From assembly GCA_034521815.1 (NCBI GenBank), contig JAXHLW010000013.1, positions 64,001-128,000 on the forward strand: a stretch of 64,000 nt of DNA, read 5' to 3'. The first letter of the stretch is position 1, and the number at the start of each line of letters is the position of its first letter. The notes beneath the pieces are model-generated. The model searched no databases. It was given only the letters and a program-made list of their open reading frames with translations, and was not told the origin of the DNA. This DNA is from Trueperaceae bacterium (GTDB lineage Bacteria > Deinococcota > Deinococci > Deinococcales > Trueperaceae). The position numbers and the translations under genes were made by a program. Positions 25,610 through 42,548 of the stretch are shown in pieces.

Positions 25610-26422
25610 GTGTCCGGCGTGTTGGCCAAACGGATCATCGCTTGCCTGGACGTGCACGCCGGCCGCGTGACGCGTGGACAGCAGTTCGGTCGGGCCGAGG
25701 CCGGCGAGCTCGCCGACGTCGGCGATCCGGTCGCGCTGGCGCTGCGTTACGACGCGCAGGAAGCGGACGAGCTGGTGCTGTACGACATCACCGCCACGGC
25801 GGAAGGGCGCGACGCCATCCTGGACGTCGCGACCCGCGTGGCCGAGAGCTGCTTCATGCCGCTCACCATCGGTGGAGGCGTCCGAACCTTGAGCGACGTC
25901 CGAGCCCTGTTCCTGGCGGGGGCCGACAAGGTGTCGATCAACTCGGGCGCGGTGGCGGATCCGGAGCTGATCCGCCAGGCGTCGGAGCACTACGGCGCGC
26001 AGGCGGTCGTGCTGTCGATCGACGTCGCGAGGCGCGCGGCCGGTGGCGGCTGGGACGTGTTCGTGGCGGGCGGCCGAAGGTCCACCGGCTGGGACGCGGT
26101 CGAATGGGCCCAGCGGGGCCAGGCGCTGGGCGCGGGCGAGATCGTGCTGAACTCGATCGACGCCGACGGGATGAAGACCGGCTACGACCTAGGGGCCACG
26201 CGGGCCGTGGCTCGCGCGGTCGACGTGCCGGTGGTCGCGTCGGGCGGGGCCGGAAACGCCGATCATATGCGCGAGGTTCTCGAGCTCGGCGAGGCCGACG
26301 CGGCGCTGGCGGCGGGCATCTTCCACCGCGGCGAGACGACCGTCGGCGAGGTCAAGCGGCGCCTGGCGGCCGCCGGCGTGCCGGTGCGACTGGACGAGCT
26401 CGGTCCGGAGCCTGCGAGGTGA
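25610..26422 (+). CDS. hisF: Imidazole glycerol phosphate synthase cyclase subunit
   Basis: [33 protein letters not shown]; start may be 25619. Confidence 0.96.
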
Positions 26423-27600
26423 GCGGCGACCGGGACGACGCCGAGCTGCGCTTCGAGACGCTGGCCGTGCACGGCGGTCACGCGCCCGATCCCGCCAGCG
26501 GCGCGGTCACGCCGCCGATCCACCCCTCGACCACCTTCGTGCGTGATCCGGGCGGACAGCCCCGCGCCGAGTGGGTCTATACGCGGGCCGAGAACCCGAC
26601 GCGCCACGCCCTGGAGGCGGCGCTCACGGCGCTGCAGCCGGGCGCGGGCGCGTGCGCGGCGTTCGCGTCCGGCTCCGCCGCCGCCTCGGCCGTGCTCCGG
26701 ACGGTCGAGCCGGGTGGCCGCCTGCTGGTGCCGGACGACATGTACCACGGCGTTCGCACGCTGCTCGAAGGGGAGCGCGACCGCTGGGGAGCCGAGGTGG
26801 CGTACGTGGACATGGCCGATCCTGCGGCGCTGAGGCGGGCCCTGGAGCCGGGCGCCTCGCTGGTGTGGGTCGAGACGCCGTCGAATCCTCGCTTGAAGCT
26901 GACCGACCTCCGCGCGGCGGCCGACGCGGCGCACGCCGCGGGGGCGCGCCTGGCGGTGGACGCCACCTGGACGCCGCCGCCGCTGTCCGACCCGTTCGCG
27001 CTGGGGGCGGACGTGGTGATGCACTCGACCACGAAGTACCTGGCGGGGCACAGCGACGTGCTGGGCGGGGCGGTGCTGGCGCGCAGCGAGGACGATCCGA
27101 CGTTCGCGCGGGTCCGCTGGCTGCAGCGCCAGGAGGGGGCCGTGCCCTCGCCGTTCGACGCCTGGCTGACGCTGCGCGGCCTCCGGACGGTGGCGCTTCG
27201 CGTCCAGGCGGCGTGCACCGGTGCCGAGCGGCTCGCGGCGTTCCTGGAGCGGCATCCGGCCGTGATCGAGGTGCGCTACCCGGGGCTGCCGTCGCACCCG
27301 CAGCACCGGTTGGCTCGCGAGCAGATGACCCGCCCCGGCGCGATGCTGTCGTTCCGCGTCCGCGGCGGCGCCCAGGCGGCCGACCGCGTGGCGTCGGGCA
27401 CGCGGCTGTTCGCGCGCGCCACCAGCCTGGGCGGCGTCGAGAGCCTGATCGAGCACCGCGCCCCGGTCGAGGGCCCGGACACGCCCACGCCTCCCGACCT
27501 GCTACGCGTCTCGGTCGGTATCGAGCACGCGGACGACCTGATCGCCGATCTGGAGCGGGCGCTCGCCCGTGCGGACCTGGCCCGTGCGGACCTGGGTTAG
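26419..27600 (+). CDS. Cystathionine gamma-synthase/lyase family PLP enzyme (canonical type)
   Basis: [41 protein letters not shown] overlaps the hisF stop. Confidence 0.9.
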
Positions 27601-27639
27601 GGCGGCCGCTCTCCAGGATGGGCAGGTAGACTCGCGGGC

Positions 27640-28296
27640 ATGACGAAACCCCGTGCCGCGTTCGGCATCGACGACGTCGTCTTCGGCGAGACCGGTCTCG
27701 TTCCGGTCGTGACGCAGGACGCCGCCTCCGGCGAGGTGCTCATGCTGGCGTGGGCCGACCTCGAGGCGCTCGAGGCGACGCTCGCGAGCGGCGACGCTCA
27801 TTACCACAGCCGCTCGCGCGACGAGCTCTGGCGCAAGGGCGCCACCAGCGGCCACGTGCAGCGCGTGGTCGAGGTGGTGCTGGACTGCGACGGCGACGCC
27901 GTGCTCTACCAGGTCCGCCAGACCGGGCCGGCCTGCCACACCGGTGAGCGCAGCTGCTTCCACCGCCCGATCGTCGAGGCCGAGGCGGGGGTGCCCGCGT
28001 CCGCGTTCGGCCTGCTGCAGCGGGTGGTCGACCAGCGCCTCGCCGAGCTTCCCGAAGGGTCGTACGTCGCGAAGCTCCATGCGCGCGGCCTCGGCTACGT
28101 CGCGCAGAAGGTGGTCGAGGAGTCGGGCGAGACGATCGTCGCGGCCCTCGAGGGCGACCTGGACGGCATGCGGAACGAGGCGGCCGACCTGCTGTTCCAC
28201 CTCACCGTGCTGCTGCGCGAGCGCGGCGTCGGCCTCGACGAGGTGGCCGAGACGCTGATCGCCCGGCATCGCGGTCGGAACGACGCCGAAGGCTGA
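27640..28296 (+). CDS. hisIE: Bifunctional phosphoribosyl-AMP cyclohydrolase / phosphoribosyl-ATP pyrophosphatase
   Basis: [40 protein letters not shown]. Confidence 0.95.
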
Positions 28297-28405
28297 GCTC
28301 GGGAACCGAGGCCAGGCCGGGCGGGACGTCGCCGACAGGACCGAACGGATCGCACGGTGTGCGTACAACACCGGCCAGCTCGCGTCCGCGGGTCACAGTG
28401 GACGC

Positions 28406-29416
28406 ATGAACGACATGACGCACCCCGCAGCCGACGCGACCGCCCTCGAACGCGCCCTCGTCCTCGACACGGTCCGGGTGACCGAACAGGCCGCCATCGC
28501 TGCCGGCCGCGTCGCCGGGATGGGGGACGAGGACATCGTCGACGTCGCCGGTACCGAGACGATGCGCCGCGTGCTGAACGAGCTCGAGATCGACGGCAAG
28601 ATCGTCATCGGCGAAGGGGAGCGCGACCACGCGCCGATGCTCTACATCGGCGAGCGGGTGGGGCGCGCCGGCGAGGGCGCCTGGGCGGTGGACATCGCCG
28701 TCGATCCGGTGGAGGGCACCGGCATCACCGCTCGCATGGTGAACGGCTCGGTGGCGGTGATCGCGATCTCGGAGCGGGGCGGTCTGCTGCACGCGCCCGA
28801 CGTGTACATGGACAAGCTCATCGTCGGCCCACCGGCGGTCGGGATGGTGGATCTCGACTGGCCGGTGGCCGCGAACCTGCAAGCGATCGCCTCCAGCCTG
28901 GACCGGAGCGTCCGCGACCTGACGGTGGTGATCCTGGACAGGCCCCGGCACGAGGAGCTCCTGGCCAAGGTCCGGGAGACGGGCGCACGCGTGAAGCTGA
29001 TCGGGGACGGCGACGTCATCGCCGCGCTGTCGGCGACGGTGCGGGGCACGAACATCCACGCGGTGATGGGCACGGGTGGCGCGCCCGAGGGCGTGCTGGC
29101 CGCGGCCGCGCTGCGATGCCTGGGAGGGGAGATCGTGGGCCGGTTCGTGCCCAGGGACCAGGCCGAGCGCGACCGGCTGGACGCGGCCGGGATCGAGCAC
29201 GGACGCTCGTACCGCACCACCGACCTGGCGCCGGGGTCGCAGATCGTGTTCAGCGCCACCGGCATCACCGACGGCGACCTGCTCAGGGGCGTCAAGTTCT
29301 TCGGCTCCGGTGCACGGACCCACACCGTCTCGATGGGCCTTCGCTCGCGCGTGATCCGCTTCTCCGACGCGGTCCACCTGCTGGGCGAGGACGCGCGCGT
29401 CCACATCCAGGTCTGA
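28406..29416 (+). CDS. glpX: Fructose-1,6-bisphosphatase class II
   Basis: [47 protein letters not shown]. Confidence 0.95.
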
Positions 29417-29422
29417 GCTGGC

Positions 29423-29453
29423 CGGCCCGCGCCCGGTCAGCGGGCGCGGGCCG
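29423..29453. terminator. 13-bp hairpin between convergent glpX and eutD-like genes
   Basis: CGGCCCGCGCCCG-GTCAG-CGGGCGCGGGCCG. Confidence 0.6.
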
Positions 29454-29454
29454 C

Positions 29455-30618
29455 TCAGCGCACGAACAGCTCGCGCGGGAAGTCGGTGATGCGCTCGGCG
29501 CCCTCCGCGGTGACGCGGATGGTCTCGGTGCAGCCGATCCCGCCCTTGCCCGGCATCTGCACCCAGGGGAGCAGGTGGAAGGTCATGTTCTCCTGCAGGG
29601 GCCGGGTCTCGCCCGGTTTCATGCTGAGGATGTGGCCCTCGCCCCAGTCGGGCGGCACGGCGATCCCGACGGAGTAGGCGACACGGGACGCCTGGGTCCC
29701 GCCGAACCCGCTCTGCGCGATCACCTGGCGGGCGACGCGGTCGATCTCGCCGGCCGGCACGCCCGGGCGGATCGCGGCCAGCGCGGCGTCGAACGCCGCC
29801 TGGACGGCGTCGAAGGCGTGCACGGCGTCGTCGTCGGGTTCGCCGACCACCACGGTACGCATCATCGGAGCGTGGTAGCGGCTGCGACAGCCGGACACCT
29901 CCAGGAACACCGTGTCGTGCGCACGCACCACGCGCCCCGCCCAGGTGGCGTGACCGATCGCGCCGCGCTCGCCGCTGGCGACGAACGGCACGATCGACGG
30001 CCAGTGGCTGCCGGCGCGCACCATCGCGCCCATCAGCTCGGCGGCGATCTCGTTCTCGCTGACGCCGGCGCGCACGGCGTCGATCCCTGCGGCCATGCCC
30101 GCCTCGGTGGTTCGCGCAGCGGCGGCGATGCGGTCGATCTCGCGCTGCGTCTTGACCACGCGGCCTTCCTCGACCAGGCCGGAGGCGTCGACCCAGTCGA
30201 CCTCCGGGAGGAGCGAGAACAGCCGGTCCTGCTGCGCCGCCGTGAAGAACCAGCCGTCGCGCTCGAACCCGATCCGGCCGCGGTCGAAGCCCATGTGGGT
30301 CAGCGTGCCGACGAGGACCTCCATCGGGTCCTGGTCGTCGCGGTAGCCGACGTTGTGCTCCGGCTCGATCCAGCTGAGGGCGGTCATGCCGCTGATCTCG
30401 AGCAGGCGCGAGACGGTGGTCGGCTCGCCGATGAGCGACACGACCATGCCCTGCCACCAGTAGTGGCCCGGACTCTCGAACCCGGTGAGGTAGGTGACGT
30501 TCTCGGGCGTGGTGGTCAGCATCGCGACCAGGCCCCAGTCGTCCATGCGGGCGCGCAGCCCGTCGAGCCGGCTCTGGTACTCGTCCACGGGGAAGGGCAG
30601 CTGGTCGTGGTCTCGCAA
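29455..30618 (-). CDS. M24B-fold ectoine hydrolase-like protein (EutD/DoeA homologue, divergent)
   Basis: LPF..EY..RL N-terminus, FLEVSGC..RYHAP..RT, YSVGI..PPDWGE, MTFHLLP, FPRELFV; TTG start 30618 behind GGGAGG; adjacent to ehu/eut genes. Confidence 0.8.
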   Translation of the reverse strand: MRDHDQLPFPVDEYQSRLDGLRARMDDWGLVAMLTTTPENVTYLTGFESPGHYWWQGMVVSLIGEPTTVSRLLEISGMTALSWIEPEHNVGYRDDQDPMEVLVGTLTHMGFDRGRIGFERDGWFFTAAQQDRLFSLLPEVDWVDASGLVEEGRVVKTQREIDRIAAAARTTEAGMAAGIDAVRAGVSENEIAAELMGAMVRAGSHWPSIVPFVASGERGAIGHATWAGRVVRAHDTVFLEVSGCRSRYHAPMMRTVVVGEPDDDAVHAFDAVQAAFDAALAAIRPGVPAGEIDRVARQVIAQSGFGGTQASRVAYSVGIAVPPDWGEGHILSMKPGETRPLQENMTFHLLPWVQMPGKGGIGCTETIRVTAEGAERITDFPRELFVR

Positions 30619-30685
30619 GGCGACCTCCCGGTCGGCGCGTCCGCGAGGGACGAAAGCGGTGCCTGGCTCGGGTCCCCGGCGCCGC

Positions 30686-30714
30686 TTGACAACGGCGGGG
30701 CGAGCCCCTAGACT
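30686..30714 (+). promoter_or_regulatory. Sigma70-type promoter of the gntR-lyase-hom-aldh-ehu-eut operon
   Basis: TTGACA 30686-30691, 17-nt spacer, TAGACT 30709-30714. Confidence 0.8.
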
Positions 30715-30730
30715 TTCCAACGAAAGCGAC

Positions 30731-30740
30731 CTGTATACAA
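30731..30740. promoter_or_regulatory. Candidate GntR/FadR-family operator
   Basis: Palindrome cTGTATACAa just downstream of the -10 box, in the divergent intergenic region upstream of a GntR gene. Confidence 0.65.
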
Positions 30741-30871
30741 CCTGCGTACGAGTGGGATTCTACGGCCGGCCCGCCGCCGCGGTCAATCCTCACGAGGAGA
30801 CCGGCCCCAACGACCCGCCCTAGCCCGGACCCGCCCAGCGCGCGCCGAGCCGCGCCCGGAAAGGGGACACC

Positions 30872-31591
30872 GTGTCCGAAGGACGCGACATCCAGACCAT
30901 CTACGCCAAGCTGCGCGAGCGCATCTCGCTGCTCGACTACCCGCCCGGAACGGCGCTCAGCGAGAACCGGCTCGCGGCCGAGTTCGGCGTCAGCCGCACG
31001 CCCATCCGCCAGGTCCTGCACCGCCTCGAGTTCGACGGCCTCGTCACCATTCGCCGCGGGGTGGGCAGCCTGGTCACGTCGATCGACGTGCGTTACCTCA
31101 AGCAGGTCTACGACCTGCGCGTGAAGCTGATCGACGTCATCGCCGACCTCGACCCGGCCGCCATCGACCAGCGCGACATCGCTCGGATCGACGCGTTGCG
31201 CGACGAGGTGCGCGCGCTCCGCGGCCGCCGCGACCCTCGCACCCTCGCCCTGGCCTACCTCGAGTTCAACCGGGCGGTCACCCGGGCGATCGGCAACGAG
31301 CCGCTGCGCGAGATCGCCGACCGCCTCTACCACCAGACCTCGCGCCTGTGGATCGACGCCCTGCCGGCCCTGACCTGGGTGCACGAAGTCGACGCCGTCG
31401 AGCAGGAGATCGACGACACCGTGCGCGCCCTGCGCGCCGGCGACATGCGTGCGGTGGCCGAGGTCCGCAAGCGCCACATGATCGACTGCATCGCCCGCGT
31501 CGGCGCCTACCTCGGCCGGTTCGACGCCATCGCAGGCGCCCCTTACACGCACCGCACGCCCCTGTCCCCGTCCGAAGGAGGACCCTCATGA
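30872..31591 (+). CDS. GntR family transcriptional regulator (FadR/FCD type)
   Basis: wHTH: YPPGT.LSE..LA.EFGVSRTPIR..L..L..DGLV; helical C-terminal domain; no aminotransferase domain. Confidence 0.92.
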   Translation: MSEGRDIQTIYAKLRERISLLDYPPGTALSENRLAAEFGVSRTPIRQVLHRLEFDGLVTIRRGVGSLVTSIDVRYLKQVYDLRVKLIDVIADLDPAAIDQRDIARIDALRDEVRALRGRRDPRTLALAYLEFNRAVTRAIGNEPLREIADRLYHQTSRLWIDALPALTWVHEVDAVEQEIDDTVRALRAGDMRAVAEVRKRHMIDCIARVGAYLGRFDAIAGAPYTHRTPLSPSEGGPS

Positions 31592-32787
31592 ACGACAACG
31601 CCCCGAAGCAGAGCACCCTCACCGTCTGGGCCGGCGAGGAGGGCGTCCGCATCGCCGGCGCGACCCAGATCCCGGTCGTGCACAGCGTCTCGTTCGGCTA
31701 CGACGACCTCGACCACTGGCGCGACGTCGCCCTCGGCGACGCCGACGGCCACATCTACGGCCGCAACACCAACCCCACCACGGCGGTGTTCGAGGAGAAG
31801 ATCCGCATTCTCGAGGACGCCGAGGCGGCCACCAGCTTCGCGACCGGCATGGCCGCCATCTCGAACACCCTCTACACCCTGCTCGCCCCCGGCGATCGCG
31901 TGGTGACGGTCAAGGACACCTACGGCGGCACGAACCGCGTGTTCCTCGACTGGCTCCCCCGCATCGGCGTCGACGTCGCGATGTGCGACACGCACGACGA
32001 GGAGGCGATCCTGGCCGCCATCGACGAGGGGCTGGCGCTCCTCTACCTCGAGACGCCCACCAACCCGACCTGCAAGATCCTCGACATCGAGAAGCTCGCC
32101 GCGCGCGCCAAGGCGAAGGGCGCGACGGTGGTCGTGGACAACACCTTCGCCACGCCCATCAACCAGTCGCCGCTCGCGCTCGGCGCCGACCTGGTGGTGC
32201 ACAGCGCCACGAAGTACCTCGGCGGTCACGCCGACGCGCTGGGCGGCGCCCTGTGCGGCAGCGAGGAGCTGGTGCGGCGCGTGTTCGGCTACCGCGAGAT
32301 CAACGGCGCCACCCTCCATCCAGAGGCCGCCTACCTGCTGATTCGCGGCATGAAGACGCTCCAGCTGCGCATCGAGCGCCAGAACGCCAGCGCCGCGCGG
32401 ATCGCCTCGTTCCTCGAGGCGCATCCGGCCGTCGAGCGGGTGTTCCACCCCTCGCTCGCCAGCCATCCGAACCACGACGTCGCGGCCCGGCAGATGCGAG
32501 GCTTCGGGGGGATGCTGTCGTTCGCGCTGGTCGGCGGGTTCGACGCCGTGCGAACCTTCCTGCCCAAGCTCCGCTTCGCCCACCGCGCCGCCAACCTCGG
32601 CGCCGTCGAGACGGTCGTGGCGCCGCCCCGCACCGGCAGCCACGTCGAGCTGACCGAGGCCGAGCGGGCCGCGCTGGGCATCCCCGAGGCGCTGGTGCGC
32701 TACTCGACCGGGATCGAAGACGTCGGCGACCTCGAGGCCGACCTCGAGCAGGCGCTCGAGGGCGTGACTGCAGGACGCACGGAATGA
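31588..32787 (+). CDS. Cys/Met-metabolism PLP-dependent gamma-lyase family protein (non-canonical subgroup)
   Basis: IYGRNTNPT, GMAAIS, ETPTNP, DNTFATP, HSATKYLGGH, AANLGAVET; AGGAGG RBS, ATGA overlap with gntR. Confidence 0.9.
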   Translation: MNDNAPKQSTLTVWAGEEGVRIAGATQIPVVHSVSFGYDDLDHWRDVALGDADGHIYGRNTNPTTAVFEEKIRILEDAEAATSFATGMAAISNTLYTLLAPGDRVVTVKDTYGGTNRVFLDWLPRIGVDVAMCDTHDEEAILAAIDEGLALLYLETPTNPTCKILDIEKLAARAKAKGATVVVDNTFATPINQSPLALGADLVVHSATKYLGGHADALGGALCGSEELVRRVFGYREINGATLHPEAAYLLIRGMKTLQLRIERQNASAARIASFLEAHPAVERVFHPSLASHPNHDVAARQMRGFGGMLSFALVGGFDAVRTFLPKLRFAHRAANLGAVETVVAPPRTGSHVELTEAERAALGIPEALVRYSTGIEDVGDLEADLEQALEGVTAGRTE

Positions 32788-33827
32788 GCGCGCTCCGCCT
32801 CGCGCTGATCGGCTTCGGGACCGTCGGCCAGGGGCTCGCGCGGATCCTGGCCGACCGCGGCGCGGACCTGCGCGAGCGCTACGGCCTGGACGTCCGCATC
32901 ACCGCCGTCGCCGACCTGCGGTGCGGCAGCGTGCACGCCGCCGACGGCCTGGACCCGGCGCGGCTGCTGGCGGCCGCGGGGGCGGACGGCACGTTCGATG
33001 CGGTCGACGCCGAGGATCGCGGCTGGGACGCCCTGACCACCATCCGCGAGGCGCAGGCCGACGTGGTCGCCGAGCTGGCGTTCACCGACCTGGCCACCGG
33101 CGAGCCGGCGCTGACGCACGTCCGCACCGCGCTGGAGCACGGCCGCCACGTGATCACCACCAACAAGGGACCGGTCGCGCTGGCGTGGCCGGAGCTGGCG
33201 GCGACCGCACGCCGGCGCGGCGTGCGCCTCGAAGCCGAGGGGACCGTGATGAGCGGCACGCCCGCCCTGCACCTCGGGGCCGAGCTGCTCGCCGGCGCCG
33301 GGGTGACGCGGATCGAAGGGATCCTCAACGGCACCACCAACTACGTCCTCACCCGCATGGAGGCCGGCGCCGACTTCGGCGAGGCGCTCGCCGAGGCGCA
33401 GGCCGAGGGCTACGCCGAGGCGGACCCCAGCGGCGACGTCGAGGGGATCGACGCCGCCGGCAAGGTGGTGATCCTGGCGAACCGGGTGATGGGCGCCGAG
33501 CTGACGATGGCCGACGTCGCCCGCGAGGGCATCGCCGGTCTGACCCGCGCGGACGTCGAGGCGGCCGCCGCCGCCGGCGAGCGCTGGAAGCTGATCGGGC
33601 GCGTCGAGCGGGACGGCCAGACGGTCCGCGCCTCCGTAGCGCCGCGGCGCGTTCCGGCCACGCACCCGCTGGCTTCGGTGGGCGGCGCGACCAACGCGGT
33701 GACGTACACCACCGAGCTGCTGGGCGACGTGACCCTGATCGGTCCCGGTGCCGGCAAGCTCGCCACCGGCTACGCCCTGATCGCCGACCTGTTGGCGATC
33801 CATCGCGCCACGGGAGGTGCGGCGTGA
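32784..33827 (+). CDS. hom: Homoserine dehydrogenase, short form without ACT domain
   Basis: IGFGTVG, HVITTNKGP, EGTVMSGTP, GILNGTTNY, GYAEADPSGDVEG.D, GPGAG. Confidence 0.93.
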   Translation: MSALRLALIGFGTVGQGLARILADRGADLRERYGLDVRITAVADLRCGSVHAADGLDPARLLAAAGADGTFDAVDAEDRGWDALTTIREAQADVVAELAFTDLATGEPALTHVRTALEHGRHVITTNKGPVALAWPELAATARRRGVRLEAEGTVMSGTPALHLGAELLAGAGVTRIEGILNGTTNYVLTRMEAGADFGEALAEAQAEGYAEADPSGDVEGIDAAGKVVILANRVMGAELTMADVAREGIAGLTRADVEAAAAAGERWKLIGRVERDGQTVRASVAPRRVPATHPLASVGGATNAVTYTTELLGDVTLIGPGAGKLATGYALIADLLAIHRATGGAA

Positions 33828-35248
33828 AGATGCTGCTCGAAGGACGCTGGGTCGATCGCGAGGCCCGCACCGAGATCCTCGACCCCGAAAGCGGCGCCAC
33901 CGTCGATACCGTGCCGCGCGCGGACGCCGCCGACGCCGAGCGTGCGCTGGCGCACGCCGAGAAGGCCGCCGAGACCGCGCGGCGCTGGCCGATCCACGAG
34001 CGCATGCGTGTGCTGAGCGGCGCCGCACGGCTGCTGGACGAGCGCCGCGAGACGTTCGCCGAACGGATCGCCCGCGAAGGCATCAAGACCATCCGCGAGG
34101 CGAGACGCGAGGCGGCCCGCTGCGCCGACACGCTCCGGCTGGGCGCCGAGGAGGCGCGCCGGCTGCACGGCGAGACGGTGCCGTTCGACCAGGCGCCCGG
34201 CTCGGAGCGGCGGGTCGGCGCCTGGCGACCCGAGCCGGTCGGCATCGTGGTGGCGATCACGCCGTACAACGACCCGCTGAACCTGGTGGCGCACAAGCTC
34301 GCCCCGGCGCTCGCCGCCGGCAACGCGGTGATCCTCAAGCCGGACAGCCGCACCCCCCTGTCCGCCCTGGCGCTGGTGGAGGCGCTGCTCGAGGCGGGAC
34401 TCCCGGAGGAGATCGTGCAGGTGCTGACCGGACCCGGCAGCGAGGTCGGCGCCGCGCTGGTCCGCGACCCGCGTCCGCGGACGGTGTCGTTCACCGGCGG
34501 CAAGGTCACCGGCGAGCGGATCGCCCGCGAGGCCGGCCTCAAGAAGCTGTCGATGGAGCTCGGCTCGAACGCCCCCGCCATCGTGCTGCCCGACGCCGAC
34601 CTGGACGCCGCCGTCGCGGCCTGCGTCGCCGGCGCCTACGCCGCGGCGGGGCAGAACTGTCTGCACGTGCAGCGCCTGCTGCTGCACCGCGACATCGCCG
34701 ACGCCTTCACCGAGGCGTTCGTGGCCGGTGCCCGCGGCGTCTCCACCGGCCCCAAGCTCGACGAGGCGACGGACATGGGACCGATGATCGACGAGCAAGC
34801 CGCGCTGCGGGTGGAATCGATGGTCCAGGACGCCCAGGCCGCGGGGGCGACGGTGCTGACCGGCGGGGGGCGCAGCGGTACCGTTCTGGCGCCGACGGTG
34901 GTCGCCGGCGTGCCGCTTGGTCACCCGCTGGACGTGGACGAGGTCTACGGACCTGTTACGGTCGTACGAACGTTCGAGGATTCGTCGGAAGCGGTCGCAC
35001 GCGCGAACGCGGTCGACTTCGGTCTTCAGGCGGGTCTGTTCACCCGCGACCTCGACGCGGCCTTCCACATCGCGGACGGCTTGCGCTACGGCGGGGTCGT
35101 GGTCAACGATAGCAGCGACTATCGGATCGACGCGATGCCGTTCGGCGGCGTGAAGGGCTCCGGCCTGGGACGTGAAGGCGTCCGCTACGCCATGGAGGCG
35201 ATGACCGAGCCCAAGCTCGTCTGTTTCGCGTTGTCGTCACGCAGCTAG
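33824..35248 (+). CDS. NAD(P)-dependent aldehyde dehydrogenase (candidate non-phosphorylating aspartate-semialdehyde dehydrogenase)
   Basis: ITPYNDP, SFTGG, MELGSN, catalytic [24 protein letters not shown]. Confidence 0.92.
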
Positions 35249-35318
35249 CACCCCGTCAAGGCCTGCCTACGCGGCCGTCCGCGGCCGACGTGGCGCGCGG
35301 CAGGAAACGAGGAGGAAC

Positions 35319-36143
35319 GTGACCCAACCGACCGTGGAACCCGAAGGAGGCGCGTCGCCCGCCGACGCCTCGTCCCCTCCGATGATCCGCTTCGAGAAGG
35401 TCCGCAAGGCCTTCGGCGATCTCGTCGTGCTGGACGACCTCGACTTCGAGGCCGCCGAGAACGAGAAGGTCGCCATCATCGGTCCGAGCGGGTCGGGCAA
35501 GACCACCATCCTCCGCGTGCTGATGACGTTGGTCAAGCCGGACGGCGGCAAGGTCTTCGTCGACGACCGCCCGCTGTGGCACCAGGAAGTGAACGGCCGC
35601 GTCGTGCCGGCCGGCGAGAAGCACCTGCACGAGGTGCGCGGCGACATCGGGATGGTGTTCCAGCACTTCAACCTGTTCCCGAACATGAGCGTGCTGCGCA
35701 ACGTCACCGAGGCGCCCATCCACGTGCGTGGCATCGCGCGCCAGGAGGCCGAGGAGCGCGGCATGGAGCTGCTCGACATGGTCGGCCTGTCCGACAAGGC
35801 CAAGGCCTTCCCGGTCCAGCTTTCCGGCGGTCAGAAGCAGCGCGTCGCCATCGCCCGCGCCCTTGCGATGGAGCCGAAGGTGATGCTGTTCGACGAGGTC
35901 ACCAGCGCGCTGGACCCCGAGCTCGTCGGCGAGGTGCTGGCGATCCTGCGCAAGCTCGCCGAAGAGACGCAGATGACGATGTTGATCGTCACGCACGAGA
36001 TGGGCTTCGCCCGAGACGTCGCCGACCGGGTGATCTTCTTCGACGCCGGCCAGGTCGCCGAAGAGGGACCGCCCGAGAGGATCTTCAGCAAGCCGGAGAA
36101 CCCGCGGACCCAGGAGTTCCTGAGCGCCGTGCTGACGCACTGA
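35319..36143 (+). CDS. ehuA: Ectoine/hydroxyectoine ABC transporter ATP-binding protein
   Basis: Polar amino acid ABC ATPase ([26 protein letters not shown]) with the EhuA-like LWH...VPA.EKHL insert; gene context. Confidence 0.85.
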
Positions 36144-36145
36144 CG

Positions 36146-36205
36146 ACGAACCACGCACCGACGCACCACGCACCGACGAATCACGAACCGACGGACCACG
36201 CAGCG
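36146..36205 (+). repeat. 4 x 15-bp degenerate tandem repeat (ACGAACCACGCACCG)
   Basis: Units start at 36146, 36161, 36176 and 36191, directly after the ehuA stop. Confidence 0.85.
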
Positions 36206-36394
36206 AAGACGTATCGAAGACGTTCCGAAGACGGAAGGAGGCGTCGATGAACCCGTACCGAGATCGGCCCGACCGGCCTACTCCCGTGCACGGGACCGGC
36301 TTGGCCCCACCGACGGGGTCGCCGGTCGAACATGGCGCCGCGGCATTCGGCCGCGCTGCGCAACACCGATAGACCTTTGGAGGTAACGAACGTG

Positions 36395-37252
36395 ATGAAG
36401 AGACTTTCGACCCTATTGATCGCCGCCCTGACCCTCGGCCTGGTGACCGGCTTCGGACTCGCCCAGCGCTCCTGGAGCGATATCCAGGAGAGCGGCACGG
36501 TCCGCGTCGTGACCGCGAACGAGATCCCGTACGGCTGGATCGACGACGAGGGCGTCGCCCACGGCATCGCTCCCGAGGTCGCCATCGCCGTCCTCGAGTC
36601 GATGGGCATCACCGACATCGAGTGGACCGTGACCGAGTTCGGTCAGCTGATCCCGAGCCTGATCGCGGGCCGCGCCGACATGACCGCCGCCAGCATGGCG
36701 ATCCTTCCCGACCGCTGCCAGCAGGTCGACTACGCCCGCCCGAACTCCTCGTACGGCGAGGGCTTCCTGGTCGCCGCGGGCAACCCGCAGGACATCCACA
36801 GCTACCAGGACTTCGTGGACAACCCCGACCTGACCATGGGCATCGTCTCCGGCGCCGACCAGATCGATTTCGCGCAGGCGATGGGCATTCCGCAGAACCA
36901 GATCTCGTTCATCAACGCGAACGCGGACGCTCCCTCGGCCGTCTCTTCGGGCCGCATCGACGCCTACGCCGGGACCGGTCTGACCGTCGCGAACCTCGCC
37001 GACTCCTCCGACCGCGTCGAGATCGCCGATCCGTTCGAGGATCCCGTCGTCGACGGTGAGCCGGTCCGCAGCTGGGGCAGCTTCAACTTCCACGCCGACG
37101 CCGACGACTTCAGCGAAGCGTTCGACGCCGCGCTCGGCGAGTTCCAGCAGACCGACGAGTACCGCGACATCCTTCTCAGCCACGGCCTGAGCGACGGCGA
37201 CATCGACGCCGCCCTCGCCGCCAGCACCGAGGACCTCTGCAGCGCAGAGTGA
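36395..37252 (+). CDS. ehuB: Ectoine/hydroxyectoine ABC transporter substrate-binding protein
   Basis: Signal peptide; ANEIPYG, G.APE, TEFGQLIPSL.AGR.D, ILPDRCQQV, C-terminal LC; start could be GTG 36392. Confidence 0.85.
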   Translation: MKRLSTLLIAALTLGLVTGFGLAQRSWSDIQESGTVRVVTANEIPYGWIDDEGVAHGIAPEVAIAVLESMGITDIEWTVTEFGQLIPSLIAGRADMTAASMAILPDRCQQVDYARPNSSYGEGFLVAAGNPQDIHSYQDFVDNPDLTMGIVSGADQIDFAQAMGIPQNQISFINANADAPSAVSSGRIDAYAGTGLTVANLADSSDRVEIADPFEDPVVDGEPVRSWGSFNFHADADDFSEAFDAALGEFQQTDEYRDILLSHGLSDGDIDAALAASTEDLCSAE

Positions 37253-37261
37253 CCTGGTGAC

Positions 37262-37300
37262 GGCAGGCCCGCTTCGGCGGGCCTGCCCTTCCTCTCTTTT
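37262..37300 (+). terminator. Stem-loop/terminator between ehuB and ehuC
   Basis: GGCAGGCCCGC-TTCG-GCGGGCCTGCC followed by a pyrimidine tract. Confidence 0.75.
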
Positions 37301-37354
37301 CCACGCTTTCTTGCACGTTCCGCACCGTATTTCGCTTCACCACCGGGAGGATCG

Positions 37355-38026
37355 ATGGAAGACCTACGGCAACTCCTCGTCCCGCTGCTGAAGGGCACCA
37401 CCGTCACCCTGCAGCTGGCGCTGGCGTCGACGTTGTTCGGCGGCATCCTGTCGTTCGCCGCCGGGATCGGCAAGCTGTCGGGCAATCCGCTGGTGCGCTG
37501 GCTCTCCGTCGGCTACATCGAGATCTTCCGCGGCACCTCGCTCCTGGTGCAGATGTTCTGGCTCTACTTCGCGCTTCCGCTGATCGGGATCCGGCTCCCC
37601 CCCGTCACCGCCGGCATCCTCGCACTGTCGCTCAACATCGGCGCCTACGGCGCCGAGGTCGTGCGCGGCGCGATCCAGGCCGTGCCGAGGGAGCAGTACG
37701 AGGCCGCCATCGCGGTGAACTTCACCCGCCGCTTCACGCTCTGGCGGGTCGTGCTGCCGCAGGCGCTGGTCGAGATGATGCCGCCGTTCGGGAACCTGGT
37801 GGTCCAGAACCTGAAGGACACCGCCCTGGTCTCGCTCATCTCGCTCAGCGACCTCACCTTTAGGGCGCAGAACTATCGGAACCTCACGTACGAGACCGTC
37901 CCCGTCTTCACCGCCACGTTGTTCATCTACTTCTTCCTGGCGCTGGCGTTCATGGCGGTCATGCGTCTGCTGGAGCGCTGGATCGCGGTCCGCGTCGGCG
38001 TCGCGCAGGGGAGGGCGAGGGCCTGA
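37355..38026 (+). CDS. ehuC: Ectoine/hydroxyectoine ABC transporter permease
   Basis: YIEIFRGTSLLVQ.FWLYF.LP, GAYGAEVVRGAI, MMPPFGN. Confidence 0.87.
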   Translation: MEDLRQLLVPLLKGTTVTLQLALASTLFGGILSFAAGIGKLSGNPLVRWLSVGYIEIFRGTSLLVQMFWLYFALPLIGIRLPPVTAGILALSLNIGAYGAEVVRGAIQAVPREQYEAAIAVNFTRRFTLWRVVLPQALVEMMPPFGNLVVQNLKDTALVSLISLSDLTFRAQNYRNLTYETVPVFTATLFIYFFLALAFMAVMRLLERWIAVRVGVAQGRARA

Positions 38027-38718
38027 TGCTGTTCGGCGTCGAATGGGACACCAGTAGCAACCTCGCCTTCGCGGTGTCGATCTTCCCGATCCTCCTCCGG
38101 GGCCTGTGGGTCACGGTGCAGGCCACCGTGCTCGGAATGGCGATCGCCCTGGTGCTGGGCCTGATCCTGGCGCTGCTCAGGATGGTGCCCCTGAAGATCG
38201 TGTCGTGGCCGACCGCCTTCTTCCTCGAGTTCGTGCGGGACACGCCGCTGCTGGTACAGCTCTACTTCCTGTTCTTCGTGCTGCCCGACTTCGGGATCAT
38301 CCTCCCGGCGTTCCTCACCGGCGCCATCGCGCTCGGGATCCAGTACAGCGGCTACACCGCCGAGGTGTACCGCGCCGGGATCGAGGCGGTGCCGCGAGGC
38401 CAGTGGGAGGCCGCCACGGCGCTGAACATGCCGGCCACCCTCACCTACCGGCACGTCATCGTCCCGCAGGCGATCCCGCGGATCGTGCCCGCGCTGGGCA
38501 ACTACCTGGTGTCGATGCTCAAGGACACCGCGATCCTCTCCGCCGTCACGGTCCTGGAGATGCTGAACGTGGCGATGCTGCTCGGGGACCGGACCTTCAA
38601 GTACTTCGTCCCCCTGACCATGGTCGGCGGCCTGTTCCTGGTGGTCACGCTGGCGGCGTCGTCGCTGGTTCGCTTCTTGGACAACCGCCTTCCGAAGTCG
38701 GGGATCCCGCTCCGGTGA
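38026..38718 (+). CDS. ehuD: Ectoine/hydroxyectoine ABC transporter permease
   Basis: EFVRDTPLLVQLYFLFFVLP, Y.AEVYRAGI, PQAIP...PALGNYL. Confidence 0.87.
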   Translation: MLFGVEWDTSSNLAFAVSIFPILLRGLWVTVQATVLGMAIALVLGLILALLRMVPLKIVSWPTAFFLEFVRDTPLLVQLYFLFFVLPDFGIILPAFLTGAIALGIQYSGYTAEVYRAGIEAVPRGQWEAATALNMPATLTYRHVIVPQAIPRIVPALGNYLVSMLKDTAILSAVTVLEMLNVAMLLGDRTFKYFVPLTMVGGLFLVVTLAASSLVRFLDNRLPKSGIPLR

Positions 38719-39774
38719 CGCCGTCGCGACCCGACCGGGTCGCGGTGACGGTGCGGGAGGTGTGGCGCGCCCGCGCCCGCATCCACGGGCTGGTGCGCCG
38801 CACGCCGTTGCTGAGCGATCCGGTGCTGGGTCCGGACATGGGGTCCGGACATGGATCCGGACGTGGGGCCGGGCGGCCCGGGCGCGTCCCACGGCGTGTG
38901 GATCAAGGACGAGACGGCGCAGCCGACCGGCTCGTTCAAGGTGCGTGGCGCCGCCAACGCCCTGCTGTCGCTCGATCCGGAGCGGCGCGCGGCCGGCGTC
39001 GTGGCCGTCTCGACGGGCAACCACGGGCGGGCCGTGGCGTACGTCGCACGCCGGCTGGGAGCGCGCGCCGACGTGTTCGTCTCGGAGCGGGTGCCGCCAG
39101 GCAAGCTGGACGCGCTGCGGGCCGAAGGCGCCACCGTCCACGTCGGTGGCGACTCGCAGGACGCGGCCGAGGAGCACGCTCGCGCCTTCGCCCGCGAGCG
39201 CGGCGCGACGCTGATCCCGCCGTTCGACCACCCAGGCGTGATCGCCGGGCAGGGCACCCTGGGCCTGGAGCTGCTCGACGAGCTTCCGGAGCTGGCCACC
39301 CTGATCGTGCCGGTCTCCGGCGGCGGGCTGATCGCCGGGACGGCGCTGGCCGTCCGTTCCGCCGCGCCGGACGTGCGAATCGTGGGCGTGTCGATGGAGG
39401 AGGGCGCGATCATGCACGCCAGCCTGCAGGCCGGGCGGCCGATGACCATGCCCGAGGCGGACACCCTGGCGGACAGTCTTCAGGGAGGCCTGGGCGCCGA
39501 CAACGCCTACACCTTCACGATGGTGCGCGAGCTGGTCGACGAGATCGTCCTGGTGCCCGAAACGGCGCTGGCCGCCGCGATGCGCCACGGCTTCCGGGTG
39601 CACCGCCGCGTGTTGGAGGGCGGCGGCGCGGCCGCCATCGCCGCGCTGGCGAGCGGCGCGGTAGGGGTGCGCGGCCCGACGGTGGCCGTGGCCTCCGGCG
39701 GCAACGTGGACGAAGCGACGTTCGCGCGCGTGCTAGCGGAAGGAGGCGACGATGAGCCCCACCGACAGACGTGA
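38715..39774 (+). CDS. eutB: Hydroxyectoine utilisation dehydratase (threonine dehydratase family), +1 frameshift near 38841
   Basis: RRTPL in one frame; K.E..QPTGSFKVRGA, STGNHGRA, LADSL.GG, SGGNVD in the next frame; lies between ehuD and eutC. Confidence 0.82.
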
Positions 39775-40735
39775 CCTGGACGGCGCGCCCCGCGTGGTGA
39801 GCGAGACCGAGATCCGGCGTCACGCCGTGCTCGGCGAGGACGCGCTCGCCGCCGTCGCGGACGGCTTCGTGCGGCTCGCCCGTGGCGAGGTGCGGCAGCC
39901 GCCCGTCCTGTCGCTGGACCTGCCCGAGGTGCACGGCGAGATCGACGTCAAGACCGCCTGGGTGCGCGGCTGGGACGGATTCTGCGTCAAGCTCTCGACC
40001 GGCTTCTTCGACAACCCCGCCCGCGGCCTGCCCTCGGCGTCGGGGATGATGATCGTCTTGGACGGGGCCACCGGGCGGCCCCGGGCGGTGCTGCTGGACG
40101 GAGGCGTTCTCACCGAGCTGCGGACCGCGGCGGCGGGCGCGCTGGCGGCACGGACCCTGGCCCGGCCGGATGCGTCGCGTGCCGCGATCCTCGGCGCCGG
40201 CTCGCAGGCGCGCTGGCAGCTGCGCGCCCTCGCGACGGTCCGCGAGCTGCAGGCGGTGCGGGTCTGGGCCCGCCGGCCCGAGGCGGCGGACGCCTACGCG
40301 CGCGAGATGGCGGACGCGTGCGGCGTCGAGGTGCGCGTCGCGGCGACGCCCGCCGCCGCCGTCGCCGACGCCGACGTGGTGGTCACCACCACGCCCGCCC
40401 GCGAGCCGCTGCTCGAGGACGGCGACCTTCCGGCCGGCGTGCACGTCACCGCCATGGGCGCAGACGGCGCCGGCAAGCGCGAGCTGGCGCCCGAGACGCT
40501 GGAGCGCGCCGACGTGCTGGTCGTCGACGACCTGGCGCAGAGCCGACGCATCGGCGAGCTCCAGGGCGTCCGGCAGGACCGCGCCTCCGGCGCCGTCGAG
40601 CTGGGTGCGGTGCTCGCCGGTGACGCGCCGGGACGCCGTGACGCGGCGCAGCGCACCGTCTGCGACCTCACCGGGACCGGCGTGCAGGACACGGCGATCG
40701 CGCGCTGGCTGCTGCGGCGTCTCGAGGCCGGTTGA
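39752..40735 (+). CDS. eutC: Ectoine utilisation cyclodeaminase (ornithine cyclodeaminase/mu-crystallin family)
   Basis: GEIDVKTA, GFFDNP..GLPS, LRTAAAG, GAGSQA, MGAD, CDLTGTGVQDTAIA. Confidence 0.9.
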   Translation: MSPTDRRDLDGAPRVVSETEIRRHAVLGEDALAAVADGFVRLARGEVRQPPVLSLDLPEVHGEIDVKTAWVRGWDGFCVKLSTGFFDNPARGLPSASGMMIVLDGATGRPRAVLLDGGVLTELRTAAAGALAARTLARPDASRAAILGAGSQARWQLRALATVRELQAVRVWARRPEAADAYAREMADACGVEVRVAATPAAAVADADVVVTTTPAREPLLEDGDLPAGVHVTAMGADGAGKRELAPETLERADVLVVDDLAQSRRIGELQGVRQDRASGAVELGAVLAGDAPGRRDAAQRTVCDLTGTGVQDTAIARWLLRRLEAG

Positions 40736-40807
40736 CGGCCGCGGTATCGTGCGACCCGCAGCCGGCGTAAGAAGGTACGTCGGTGACACCTCGGACGGAG
40801 CTCATCG

Positions 40808-41752
40808 TTGTTGGACGTCGCCGCCATCGCCATCGGAATCGCCCTGCTGTTCAGCGGCGGCGAGCTCCTCGTCCGCAACGCCAGCGCGCTGGCGCGCGTC
40901 TGGGGGCTCAGCCCCATGGTCGTCGGCCTGACCATCGTCGCGTTCGGCACCTCGTCGCCCGAGCTGGCCGCGAGCCTCACGGCCACGCTGCAAGGATCGC
41001 CTCAGATCGCGCTCGGCAACGTCGTCGGCTCGAACATCGCCAACATCGCGCTGGTCCTCGCGCTGGTCGCTCTGGTGCAGCCGCCGAGGGCTACGGCGAG
41101 CTTCCTGCGGCGCGAGGTCCCGATCATGGTGGGCGCGTCGGCGCTGCTCGTCGTTGTGCTCGTGGGCGGCGTCGTGGGGAGGGCCGAGGGAGCGCTGCTG
41201 CTCCTCTTGCTTGTGGCCTACTTGCTGTTGCTTCTTCGTCGGGGCGAGGAGACGAGCGCGGTCCGCGAGGAGTTCGCGCAGGCGTACGGCGGACCCGCGC
41301 GACGCTCGACCTGGATGGCCGTGCTGCTGGTCGTCGTAGGTCTGGCGCTGCTGGTGGGTGGAGCGAACGTCCTGGTCGTGGGCGCGACCTCGCTGGCTCG
41401 CGGGTTCGGCCTGCCCGAGATGGTGATCGGCTTGACGCTCGTGGCGGTCGGGACCAGCCTTCCGGAGCTCGCGACGTCGCTGGTCGCAGCCGCCAAGCGT
41501 CAGCCCGACATCGCCCTGGGCAACATCGTCGGCTCGAACATCTTCAACGTCCTGGGCATCGTCGGCGCGACGGCCGTGACGCGGCCCCTGAGGGTTCCGT
41601 TCGAGGTGGTCGCGATCGATCTGTGGGTGATGCTGGGTCTCAGCGTTCTGCTGGTTCCGTTCCTGGTGTCCGGGCTGCGGCTCGGTCGGCGCGAAGGTGC
41701 CGTCCTCGTGGCGCTCTACGTCGGCTACGTGGCGTACCTGTACCTGGCGTGA
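40808..41752 (+). CDS. Calcium/sodium antiporter (YrbG/CaCA family)
   Basis: Two alpha repeats: GTSSPE..GNVVGSN and GTSLPE..GNIVGSN. Confidence 0.93.
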   Translation: MLDVAAIAIGIALLFSGGELLVRNASALARVWGLSPMVVGLTIVAFGTSSPELAASLTATLQGSPQIALGNVVGSNIANIALVLALVALVQPPRATASFLRREVPIMVGASALLVVVLVGGVVGRAEGALLLLLLVAYLLLLLRRGEETSAVREEFAQAYGGPARRSTWMAVLLVVVGLALLVGGANVLVVGATSLARGFGLPEMVIGLTLVAVGTSLPELATSLVAAAKRQPDIALGNIVGSNIFNVLGIVGATAVTRPLRVPFEVVAIDLWVMLGLSVLLVPFLVSGLRLGRREGAVLVALYVGYVAYLYLA

Positions 41753-41860
41753 TCGGGTTGCCGAGGGACGCGTGGGACGTCGCCTGACTCGGAGGACGCG
41801 CAGCCGCTGCGTCTTGGACCGGGCCCTGCGGGCCGGGCCGGATGCAGGTGGCCGCTATGC

Positions 41861-42548
41861 TTGGGCATGGCAACGACTCGTTCGCAACGACGCCGCCCCC
41901 GCCCTCTGCGGGCTTCGAGGCCGCTGATGGCATTTCTGATCCTCGCCTCGATGGCACTGATGAGCGCGCCCGTCGCCGCGCAGCGCGTCGTGTCGACCCG
42001 CATCATCGTGAACGCTTTCGGTCCTGCCGTCATCGGTCTGATCGAGAACGATACGGCCCAGAGCGTGGACGTCGTGAGCGTGAGCGTCACGCTACTGGAC
42101 GCGAATGGGAATTTCCTCGCCCGGCAGACCGGCGTTCCCGACCTGCGCGTGATCGCGCCCGGTGACCGCAGCCCCTTCACCGTGCCGTCCTTCGATCCGT
42201 TCCACTCGGCCGCGGCGACGGCGACAGTGGACCTGAACGTGCGTCCCGCCGAGGCCCCACCGGAGGACCTCGCCGTGCGCGAGGTGCATGCGGAGCGGAG
42301 CACCGCCGGCACGCGCGGCGTGCACCGGCACCGTCGTGAACCTCGGCGACGCGCCGAGGACCTTCATCAAGGTGAGCGCCACGGCGCTCGGCCCGAACGA
42401 CGAGATTCTCGGTACCAGCGCGCACTACGAGAACATTCGAACGTTGGCGCCCGGCGCGTCGATGCCCTTCTCGGTGTTCTTGCCGGGATTGCAGGAGGCA
42501 GCGGCAGCGTGGCTGGTCCGCGCCGGCGACGGGCGCAACGCGTTCTGA
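41861..42548 (+). CDS. Exported FxLYD-like domain protein (two repeats), frameshift near 42320
   Basis: Signal peptide; two G.[IV].N...V.V...L...N......[IL]APG...PF repeats split over two frames. Confidence 0.6.

Follow-up and report, generated by a model that had tools for sequence, protein, structure and literature searches.

The 64 kb window analysed here belongs to a contig of a Trueperaceae bacterium (Deinococcota), the genome assembly of which amounts to 2.63 Mb and is 83.5% complete; the G+C content of the window is ~71%. We examined a trio of plus-strand genes encoding a pyridoxal phosphate (PLP)-dependent gamma-lyase of the PRK08249 family (31588..32787, 399 aa, above the NF006097 cut-off), a homoserine dehydrogenase (Hom) of the catabolic PRK06270 type without ACT domain (32784..33827, 347 aa, above the NF004912 cut-off) and an aldehyde dehydrogenase (ALDH; 33824..35248), the three open reading frames (ORFs) being found where the initial annotation had placed them. 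They are preceded by the first gene of the operon, which encodes a GntR-family regulator (30872..31591, + strand) with weak NCBIfam matches to the GntR-type models PhnR and HutC. Stop and start codons overlap at each junction (ATGA for GntR/lyase and for lyase/Hom, GTGA for Hom/ALDH, the ALDH start being GTG 33824 or ATG 33830). These overlaps indicate that the four genes form one translationally coupled unit.

Ectoine is among the most abundant microbial osmolytes and is a traded product. To our knowledge, its breakdown has been worked out in only few Proteobacteria, via DoeA, DoeB, DoeD and DoeC. The 'osmolyte context' in which the trio had initially been seen is that of an ectoine/hydroxyectoine locus, comprising a DoeA-like gene, the GntR gene, the trio, EhuABCD, EutB and EutC. 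The DoeA-like ectoine hydrolase, of the M24 fold, is encoded divergently from the operon (29455..30720, - strand) by a gene present in single copy in the genome. It scored 378.4 bits against NF038259 (ectoine_DoeA_2, cut-off 575) and 241.7 bits against TIGR02993 (cut-off 613), PepQ being next best with 118. Since these curated cut-offs were missed, we call this hydrolase DoeA-like, i.e. a relative and not a certified member. Downstream of the trio and on the + strand, the components of an ectoine/hydroxyectoine ABC transporter all passed their cut-offs: the ATPase EhuA (35319..36143; TIGR03005, 399.2 bits, cut-off 345.4), the substrate-binding protein EhuB (36332..37252; TIGR02995, 247 bits, cut-off 190.9) and the permeases EhuC (37355..38026; TIGR03004, 276.8 bits, cut-off 196.95) and EhuD (38026..38718; TIGR03003, 309.2 bits, cut-off 205.2). 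They are followed, also on the + strand, by a EutB-like hydroxyectoine utilisation dehydratase (38851..39774; NF005680, 372.1 bits, cut-off 413) and by a EutC-like cyclodeaminase or imine reductase family protein (39752..40735; NF006141, 393.4 bits, cut-off 408; TIGR02992, 339.6 bits, cut-off 471.65), both below their cut-offs.

Canonical ectoine catabolism comprises DoeA/EutD, DoeB/EutE, DoeD/Atf, DoeC/Ssd and EutABC, together with an Ehu or Ueh transporter. The window shares with it a DoeA homologue, EhuABCD and the EutB- and EutC-like proteins, as well as a terminal ALDH that could take the DoeC role, with aspartate as the expected end product. It differs in its regulator, which is of the GntR type instead of EnuR or AsnC, and in that its DoeA, EutB and EutC homologues all remain under the curated cut-offs. 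In particular, neither DoeB nor DoeD was found in the window, and a lyase of the cystathionine gamma-synthase (CGS) family and Hom are present in their place. Across the genome, in an assembly 83.5% complete, the best DoeB match reached 91.2 bits (cut-off 402.7), the best match for the transaminase of L-2,4-diaminobutyrate (DABA) 255.6 bits (cut-off 401.6), and EctA was not found. The organism looks like an ectoine consumer rather than a producer. No pathway-specific deacetylase was found in the genome either, an M14-type match on contig C8 being only 30-32% identical to real DoeB, and NCBIfam scans of further window genes at 19.7-24.4 kb and 41.9-45.5 kb gave no amidase or deacetylase. An M20 amidohydrolase (C1:549-1661) scored 298 bits on the DoeB2 model. 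Its relatives at E 1e-90 or better are, however, spread over 184 of the 301 phylum genomes regardless of whether the lyase is present, so that we keep it only as a possible, non-specific candidate.

The lyase scored 650.9 bits (cut-off 600) against NF006097, with positions 6-397 of 402 covered; this is the model of the PRK08249 'cystathionine gamma-synthase family protein', to which no reaction is assigned. The next-best family was methionine gamma-lyase (MGL; TIGR01328, 374 bits, cut-off 549.7), and models of CGS (MetB) gave 353.2 bits (NF005871, cut-off 513) and 319 bits (TIGR02080, cut-off 504.55). Every curated NCBIfam cut-off for CGS, cystathionine gamma-lyase (CGL), MGL and sulfhydrylase was missed. 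Public sources label close relatives 'cystathionine gamma-synthase (family protein)', just as the initial annotation had forecast.

Gamma-family PLP enzymes are marked by a Schiff-base Lys, a Tyr stacking on the PLP ring, an Asp at the pyridine N, an Arg for the alpha-carboxylate and a Tyr and Arg from the neighbouring subunit at the phosphate. In a comparison of 51 family rows with 48 outgroup rows, the catalytic residues Y57, R59, Y112, D184, K209 and R371 of the lyase fall in columns conserved in at least 95% of the family and at least 90% of the outgroup, and align to MGL structures. The lyase thus has the residues of the PLP-dependent enzymes of Cys/Met metabolism (gamma-family, fold type I). 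Its nearest solved structures are methionine gamma-lyases (e.g. 6lxu and 4mkk, E = 9e-96, almost full length), none of them close. Eight residues, W14, N60, T61, K109, E237, A335, E354 and Y372, are invariants of the family's own. E237 aligns with Asp240 of the Citrobacter methionine gamma-lyase, and one may speculate that E237 and E354 bind a gamma-ammonium group. A different substrate pocket had been argued for on the grounds of the motif AANLGAVET in the lyase as compared to ATSLGGVES in the paralogue at 26419-27600. Both motifs are present, and the Ser-to-Asn change is unusual (Asn in 40 of 51 family rows, Ser in 47 of 48 outgroup rows). However, Ser occurs in 11 of the 51 family rows, so that the change does not define the family; the Denitromonas and Azoarcus lyases, whose genes lie beside DoeA and DoeB, retain Ser at this column.

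A tree was built from 78 rows, namely the window lyase, three paralogues from its own genome, a canavanine-cluster enzyme and 73 of 80 related loci (L019, L029, L032, L033, L042, L068 and L072 were left out at ORF extraction). The 30 PRK08249-like rows formed one tightly conserved clade (SH-aLRT 100, branch length 0.45). In the phylogeny that the initial annotation had called for, the lyase thus falls in a clade of its own family. It is very improbable, in our view, that the lyase is an ordinary transsulfuration or methionine-type enzyme of the superfamily. Such an enzyme would agree with the superfamily membership, with the full set of catalytic residues and with the many family members that stand alone in diverse contexts. 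Against it speak the missed cut-offs and the separate clade, the three other paralogues that the genome already holds, and a linkage to ectoine genes that recurs in several phyla (see below) and, together with the overlapping codons, argues against chance. The paralogue at 26419-27600 is closest to the PRK07811 type of CGS. It sits between hisF and hisIE (window 25610-28296), and a locus of the same genus (L153) shows the order HisF, CGS-like, HisIE, GlpX, lyase, with no DoeA-like, GntR, Hom or ALDH gene.

Hom scored 427.6 bits against NF004912 (cut-off 373, positions 2-340 of 343). The absence of an ACT region from its 347 aa was borne out by NCBIfam profile coverage. The claim that this absence marks a catabolic role was not: the second Hom of the genome, presumably the housekeeping enzyme (C13:350717-351721), is also short and has no ACT domain, so that the missing domain appears to be a lineage trait and not by itself a sign of catabolism. 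Window Hom and rhizobial catabolic Homs share an insert which is absent from this second Hom. A plasmid search with the window Hom returned 134 records, mostly rhizobial, with 50-53% identity, including the Hom of a canavanine cluster and a record of R. johnstonii 3841 (NC_008383.1, H32). The latter match may be pRL80071, which the accessible part of PMC10228743 places in a dehydrogenase class favouring homoserine oxidation. The ALDH reached no curated NCBIfam cut-off (top score 466.6 bits, cut-off 650); as judged by its sequence relatives, we propose that it oxidises aspartate semialdehyde to aspartate.

The initial annotation had likened the trio to the canavanine degradation module, recalling a route in which a gamma-lyase releases homoserine and Hom and ALDH act via aspartate semialdehyde. 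This route was confirmed by the accessible part of PMC9533460: in P. canavaninivorans, a PLP gamma-lyase yields homoserine, and an NAD-specific homoserine dehydrogenase and aldehyde dehydrogenases lead to aspartate, the Pseudomonas counterparts of Hom and ALDH having been shown to turn homoserine into aspartate. On R. leguminosarum plasmid pRLN3 (locus L084), a B3/4-domain gene, an ABC importer, a PLP enzyme, an SMR exporter, Hom, ALDH, dapA and aspartate ammonia-lyase match the published rhizobial canavanine cluster. As in the canavanine module (CangL, HD, AC/AH), the window has a gamma-family PLP enzyme and an ACT-less catabolic Hom directly followed by ALDH, and the chemistry proposed, gamma-elimination and then water addition to homoserine, would be the same. 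Both the Hom and the ALDH of L084 share 51% identity with their window counterparts (the ALDH over 455 residues) and give the same top NCBIfam matches. In contrast, the window lyase is 35% identical to the gamma-lyase orthologue of L084, which scores 277 bits on NF006097 (cut-off 600) and is placed outside the PRK08249 clade, its terminal branch having a length of 1.37. The resemblance to the canavanine module therefore holds for the homologous Hom-ALDH pair and not for the lyase, which shares the fold but is a separate member of it and no orthologue. That the trio serves canavanine utilisation itself, as in Pseudomonas and Rhizobiales, is suggested by these two homologous dehydrogenases but has hardly any chance of being correct. 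Apart from the different lyase, no counterparts of the guanidine exporter, B3/4-domain and aspartate ammonia-lyase genes of L084 were found in the window, the annotated neighbours include no SMR/Gdx exporter, and both transporter and hydrolase are of the ectoine type (Ehu, DoeA-like).

We then considered the genomic context of the lyase elsewhere. Among 80 related loci, 33 carry a lyase orthologue with at least 60% identity and come from at least eight phyla. Ten of these 33 (L002, L003, L012, L013, L015, L016, L018, L024, L028 and L031) also contain DoeA and/or EutB/EutC in the stretch covered, and span Deinococcota, Bacillota, Betaproteobacteria, Gammaproteobacteria, Actinomycetota and Thermodesulfobacteriota. 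A metagenome-assembled genome (MAG) of the same family, Trueperaceae, is fully syntenic with the window at L002 (same contig as L146), its lyase being 76% identical. The order is EutB, a 557-aa ORF, DoeA, EutC, lyase, M20 amidohydrolase, Hom and ALDH in Salimicrobium (L003), and DoeA, lyase, Hom and ALDH in Salipaludibacillus (L012). In three further loci the lyase adjoins DoeA and DoeB: EutB, EhuR, EutC, DoeA, DoeB, lyase in Denitromonas (L024) and DoeA, DoeB, lyase in Azoarcus (L015), in both of which DoeA and DoeB exceed their cut-offs, and lyase, DoeA, DoeB in Acidimicrobiales (L031), where DoeB exceeds its cut-off and DoeA reaches 607.8 bits (cut-off 613). These DoeA-DoeB-lyase loci contain no ALDH.

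Within the phylum, the PRK08249 model matches 46 of 301 genomes, nearly all in the family of the window. From the 45 other matching loci we sampled 20, from 20 genomes, with preference for longer contigs and different genera. Ectoine genes are present in 13 of the 20, and 13 of them have GntR ahead of the lyase gene; the two counts were taken separately over all 20 loci. Hom-ALDH directly follows the lyase in seven, while six have a lone lyase. In all, Hom-ALDH comes immediately after the lyase in the window, L002 (= L146), L012, L136, L138, L139, L140, L144 and L151, with L003 as an exception in that the M20 amidohydrolase intervenes; the gene order lyase-Hom-ALDH is thus found in Deinococcota and Bacillota. 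Of the 301 genomes, 35 possess a DoeA-like gene, and the lyase is found in 30 of these 35 as compared to 16 of the 266 others, a link which a nominal Fisher p-value would overstate because related genomes are not independent. When two bona fide DABA transaminases were used as queries, no such gene close both in sequence and in distance was found at any of 52 distinct lyase loci, nor in the window within 14 kb of its lyase. The sole matches, at L032, L001 and window 16.5-17.4 kb, are weak and distant (25-35% identity).

Taken together, these data lead us to propose, with about an even chance of being right, that the trio is the downstream half of an operon for ectoine/hydroxyectoine import and catabolism, in which the lyase would convert ectoine-derived DABA to homoserine and ammonia while Hom and ALDH would make aspartate. 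Ectoine would be imported by EhuABCD and its ring opened by the DoeA-like hydrolase to N-acetyl-2,4-diaminobutyrate, from which a deacetylase encoded outside the cluster would release DABA. By gamma-elimination of ammonia and addition of water, the PRK08249 enzyme would then turn DABA into L-homoserine. Hom, belonging to a class reported to favour oxidation, would yield aspartate semialdehyde, and the ALDH would yield aspartate, so that lyase and Hom would stand in for the usual DABA transaminase DoeD. This is the simplest pathway (ectoine, N-acetyl-DABA, DABA, homoserine, aspartate semialdehyde, aspartate) which uses each gene once.

It is from gene context that we infer the function of the lyase, i.e. 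its substrate and product, and likewise the source of the deacetylase. The lyase is placed on DABA because certified DoeA and DoeB yield this compound and the lyase is the sole unassigned enzyme beside them; its product is read as homoserine because Hom-ALDH follows it and is homologous to a pair leading from homoserine to aspartate. Deacylases beside or near the lyase in L003, L018, L001 and L150 fit a free amino acid such as DABA as substrate. An experimental precedent for elimination of a gamma-substituent and addition of water by a gamma-family PLP enzyme is given by canavanine gamma-lyase, as reported in the accessible part of PMC9533460. The idea of the initial annotation that a portable module had been recruited for a different substrate stands in so far as a homoserine-to-aspartate module appears with another gamma-lyase in osmolyte catabolism, at an ectoine locus devoid of DoeB and DoeD and with the lyase family recurring next to genes for ectoine hydrolase in several phyla. 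Two of the arguments put forward for it, the motif and the missing ACT domain, proved weak.

Several observations weigh against this proposal. Ectoine genes are absent from 23 of the 33 orthologous loci, where contexts are mixed, and from 7 of the 20 same-phylum loci, one of which (L136, 13.6 kb seen) still has Hom-ALDH. Likewise, 16 of the 46 lyase-bearing genomes of the phylum have no DoeA-like gene, and DoeA was found at E <1e-30 in none of five lone-lyase genomes, suggesting that the core role of the family is not tied to ectoine. Denitromonas, Salimicrobium and Salipaludibacillus each possess an above-cut-off DABA transaminase elsewhere in the genome, so that a transaminase route may operate there. 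Asn60, which adjoins the phosphate-binding Arg59, is at first sight a point in favour, as it is found in 51 of 51 family rows and in one of 48 outgroup rows, that of the canavanine gamma-lyase orthologue, but it is one of only four positions shared in this way, about chance level. Moreover, a cluster in the family of the window (L158, G207:C56) has the order GntR-Hom-ALDH-EutB-EutC-DoeA and no lyase. An SsuC/TauB-type ABC transporter borders it. The PRK08249 family is not represented in the genome concerned (best score 379 bits, cut-off 600), and no other PLP enzyme was found near the cluster. Hom-ALDH can therefore persist without the lyase. The distribution of the deacetylase, the seven same-phylum ectoine clusters (GntR-lyase-Ehu etc.) that carry the lyase without Hom-ALDH, and the neighbours of the lyase in two Zoogloeaceae loci also count against it; each bears on an alternative considered below.

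L158 is one of five phylum loci, L156 to L160, whose genomes have a DoeA-like gene and no lyase. In L157 (G225:C31), also from the family of the window, DoeA-like-DoeB is accompanied by GntR-ALDH-EhuABCD-EutBC, lyase and Hom being absent. Its ALDH, located directly after GntR, is 65% identical to that of the window; this fits ALDH as an aspartate-semialdehyde dehydrogenase, and a lyase-Hom pair that takes the place of other steps. L160 has DoeA-like-DoeB on a short contig. L159, on a contig of 5.6 kb, has a DoeA-like gene and a GntR gene with EhuA as the very next one, and the DoeA-like gene of L156 stands outside any cluster. Conversely, no DoeB or M20 gene was found in the window or in the 13 same-phylum loci with lyase and ectoine genes. 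Since, among these Trueperaceae relatives, DoeB is found only where the lyase is absent (L157, L160), the lyase could act on the acetylated intermediate instead of DABA and might replace DoeB too. Its substrate would then be N-gamma-acetyl-2,4-diaminobutyrate, which is an aza-analogue of O-acetylhomoserine; release of acetamide and addition of water would yield homoserine, and a deacetylase would not be required. Indeed, 42 of 51 rows have K or R, a basic residue, at what we take to be the distal-carboxylate binding position of CGS and CGL. We nevertheless regard this acetylated substrate as unlikely. Outside the phylum, the lyase gene adjoins DoeB (L015, L024, L031) or is found near an M20 amidohydrolase (L003, L018). 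An amide is a poor leaving group, and we know of no precedent for one in gamma-family PLP enzymes. Finally, the product of the characterised DoeA enzymes is mostly the N-alpha isomer (PMC7192451, accessible part), whose alpha-amino group is not free for PLP chemistry.

In the two Zoogloeaceae loci, Denitromonas (L024) and Azoarcus (L015), the lyase is followed by lpd, with PDH-type E1/E2 genes nearby, a neighbourhood that fits 2-oxobutyrate as the product. It resembles the mdeA-mdeB arrangement of Pseudomonas putida. The lyase could accordingly catalyse an MGL-like alpha,gamma-elimination of DABA (or homoserine) to 2-oxobutyrate and ammonia, leaving Hom and ALDH on a separate branch. The seven clusters without Hom-ALDH and the MGL nature of the closest solved structures are in line with this, yet we hold such a product to be doubtful, with a small chance only. 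Hom, although it follows the lyase in ten loci of two phyla and is of the class reported to favour homoserine oxidation, would have no role; the two Zoogloeaceae loci, being closely related, amount to one observation; and the lyase has Gly114 at the column following the stacking Tyr which we take to be that of the MGL active-site Cys. In the pathway through DABA and homoserine, clusters without Hom-ALDH could pass homoserine to housekeeping enzymes. As separate observations on these loci, a ~600-aa dihydrolipoyl dehydrogenase with ~130-140 extra N-terminal residues is encoded after the lyase on the same strand in both (L024:11228-18086 and L015:3784-12455), and the PDH-type E1/E2 genes are oriented differently in the two. 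Denitromonas iodatirespirans also has tandem DoeA-like copies in one 751-aa ORF (L024:6516-8923), the upstream copy being 92% identical to the downstream one (tblastn), which could be a real duplication/fusion or an assembly artefact.

Extending the proposal to the whole family is more tentative, and we put it at somewhat below an even chance. PRK08249 proteins would be DABA gamma-lyases, catalysing hydrolytic deamination to homoserine. With Hom and ALDH, they would constitute a transaminase-free branch of ectoine/hydroxyectoine catabolism, independent of 2-oxoglutarate, across Deinococcota, Bacillota, Actinomycetota, Proteobacteria and Thermodesulfobacteriota; where ectoine genes are absent, they might serve DABA assimilation or detoxification. 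We know of no enzyme described for this PLP reaction. Our literature search, limited in range, retrieved no DABA gamma-lyase and no ectoine-to-homoserine route. Ectoine catabolism and the canavanine Hom-ALDH module are already known, and what is probably new is the homoserine variant resting on the widespread PRK08249 family.

A related gene set has been described recently. The accessible part of PMC13188858 (2026) reports putative Gram-positive ectoine clusters 'pucR-eutBCD-atf ... abgB-thrA-adh', and calls abgB, thrA and adh, of unknown role, a feature of Gram-positive clusters. Salimicrobium L003 has the same gene order, with the PRK08249 lyase at the place of 'atf'; as judged by this order, the 'atf' of that paper is probably the PRK08249 lyase in Bacillales. 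The window would be the Deinococcota version of the gene set. In contrast to our proposal, the accessible part of PMC13188858 contains no gamma-lyase/homoserine route, and neither Deinococcota nor cystathionine-type enzymes are mentioned in it; its single reference to homoserine concerns thr reducing aspartate semialdehyde to homoserine, which is not catabolic.

If the proposed pathway is correct, a large family annotated 'cystathionine gamma-synthase', found in 46 of 301 genomes of the phylum and with relatives 60-79% identical in many phyla, would gain a function, ectoine would have a second known route to aspartate, and the Gram-positive clusters of 2026 would be accounted for. The homoserine-to-aspartate gene pair would then be a portable module, used with different gamma-lyases for different gamma-substituted amino acids. 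Metabolic reconstructions that assign the lyase gene to methionine biosynthesis would be corrected, and ectoine production strains would offer a new deletion target.

For the lone-lyase loci, neighbour clustering and NCBIfam scans revealed mixed contexts and no common theme. An Lrp-type regulator occurs in only 4 of 53 locus records and ArgE/DapE-type deacylases in two; these deacylases adjoin the lone lyase in an Ilumatobacteraceae MAG (L001:11244-12491) and in a Deinococcota locus with no ectoine genes nearby (L150:10480-11631). A class-I (AspC-like) aminotransferase lies near the lyase in L004 (Chloroflexota), L013 (Desulfotignum) and L018 (Lutispora), the latter two also having DoeA.

As for non-coding features of the window, a search of the divergent intergenic region (30700-30900) for an operator-like inverted repeat found none, and an Rfam scan of 28000-42000 matched no family. 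In the ehuA-ehuB spacer, 4.2 copies of a 15-nt tandem repeat (83% matches to the consensus CGACGAACCACGCAC) occupy 36144-36206, without Rfam match, followed by an 11-nt repeat at 36204-36233. Elsewhere in the window, at 14001-16000, the G+C content falls to 0.60, compared to ~0.71 in the remainder.

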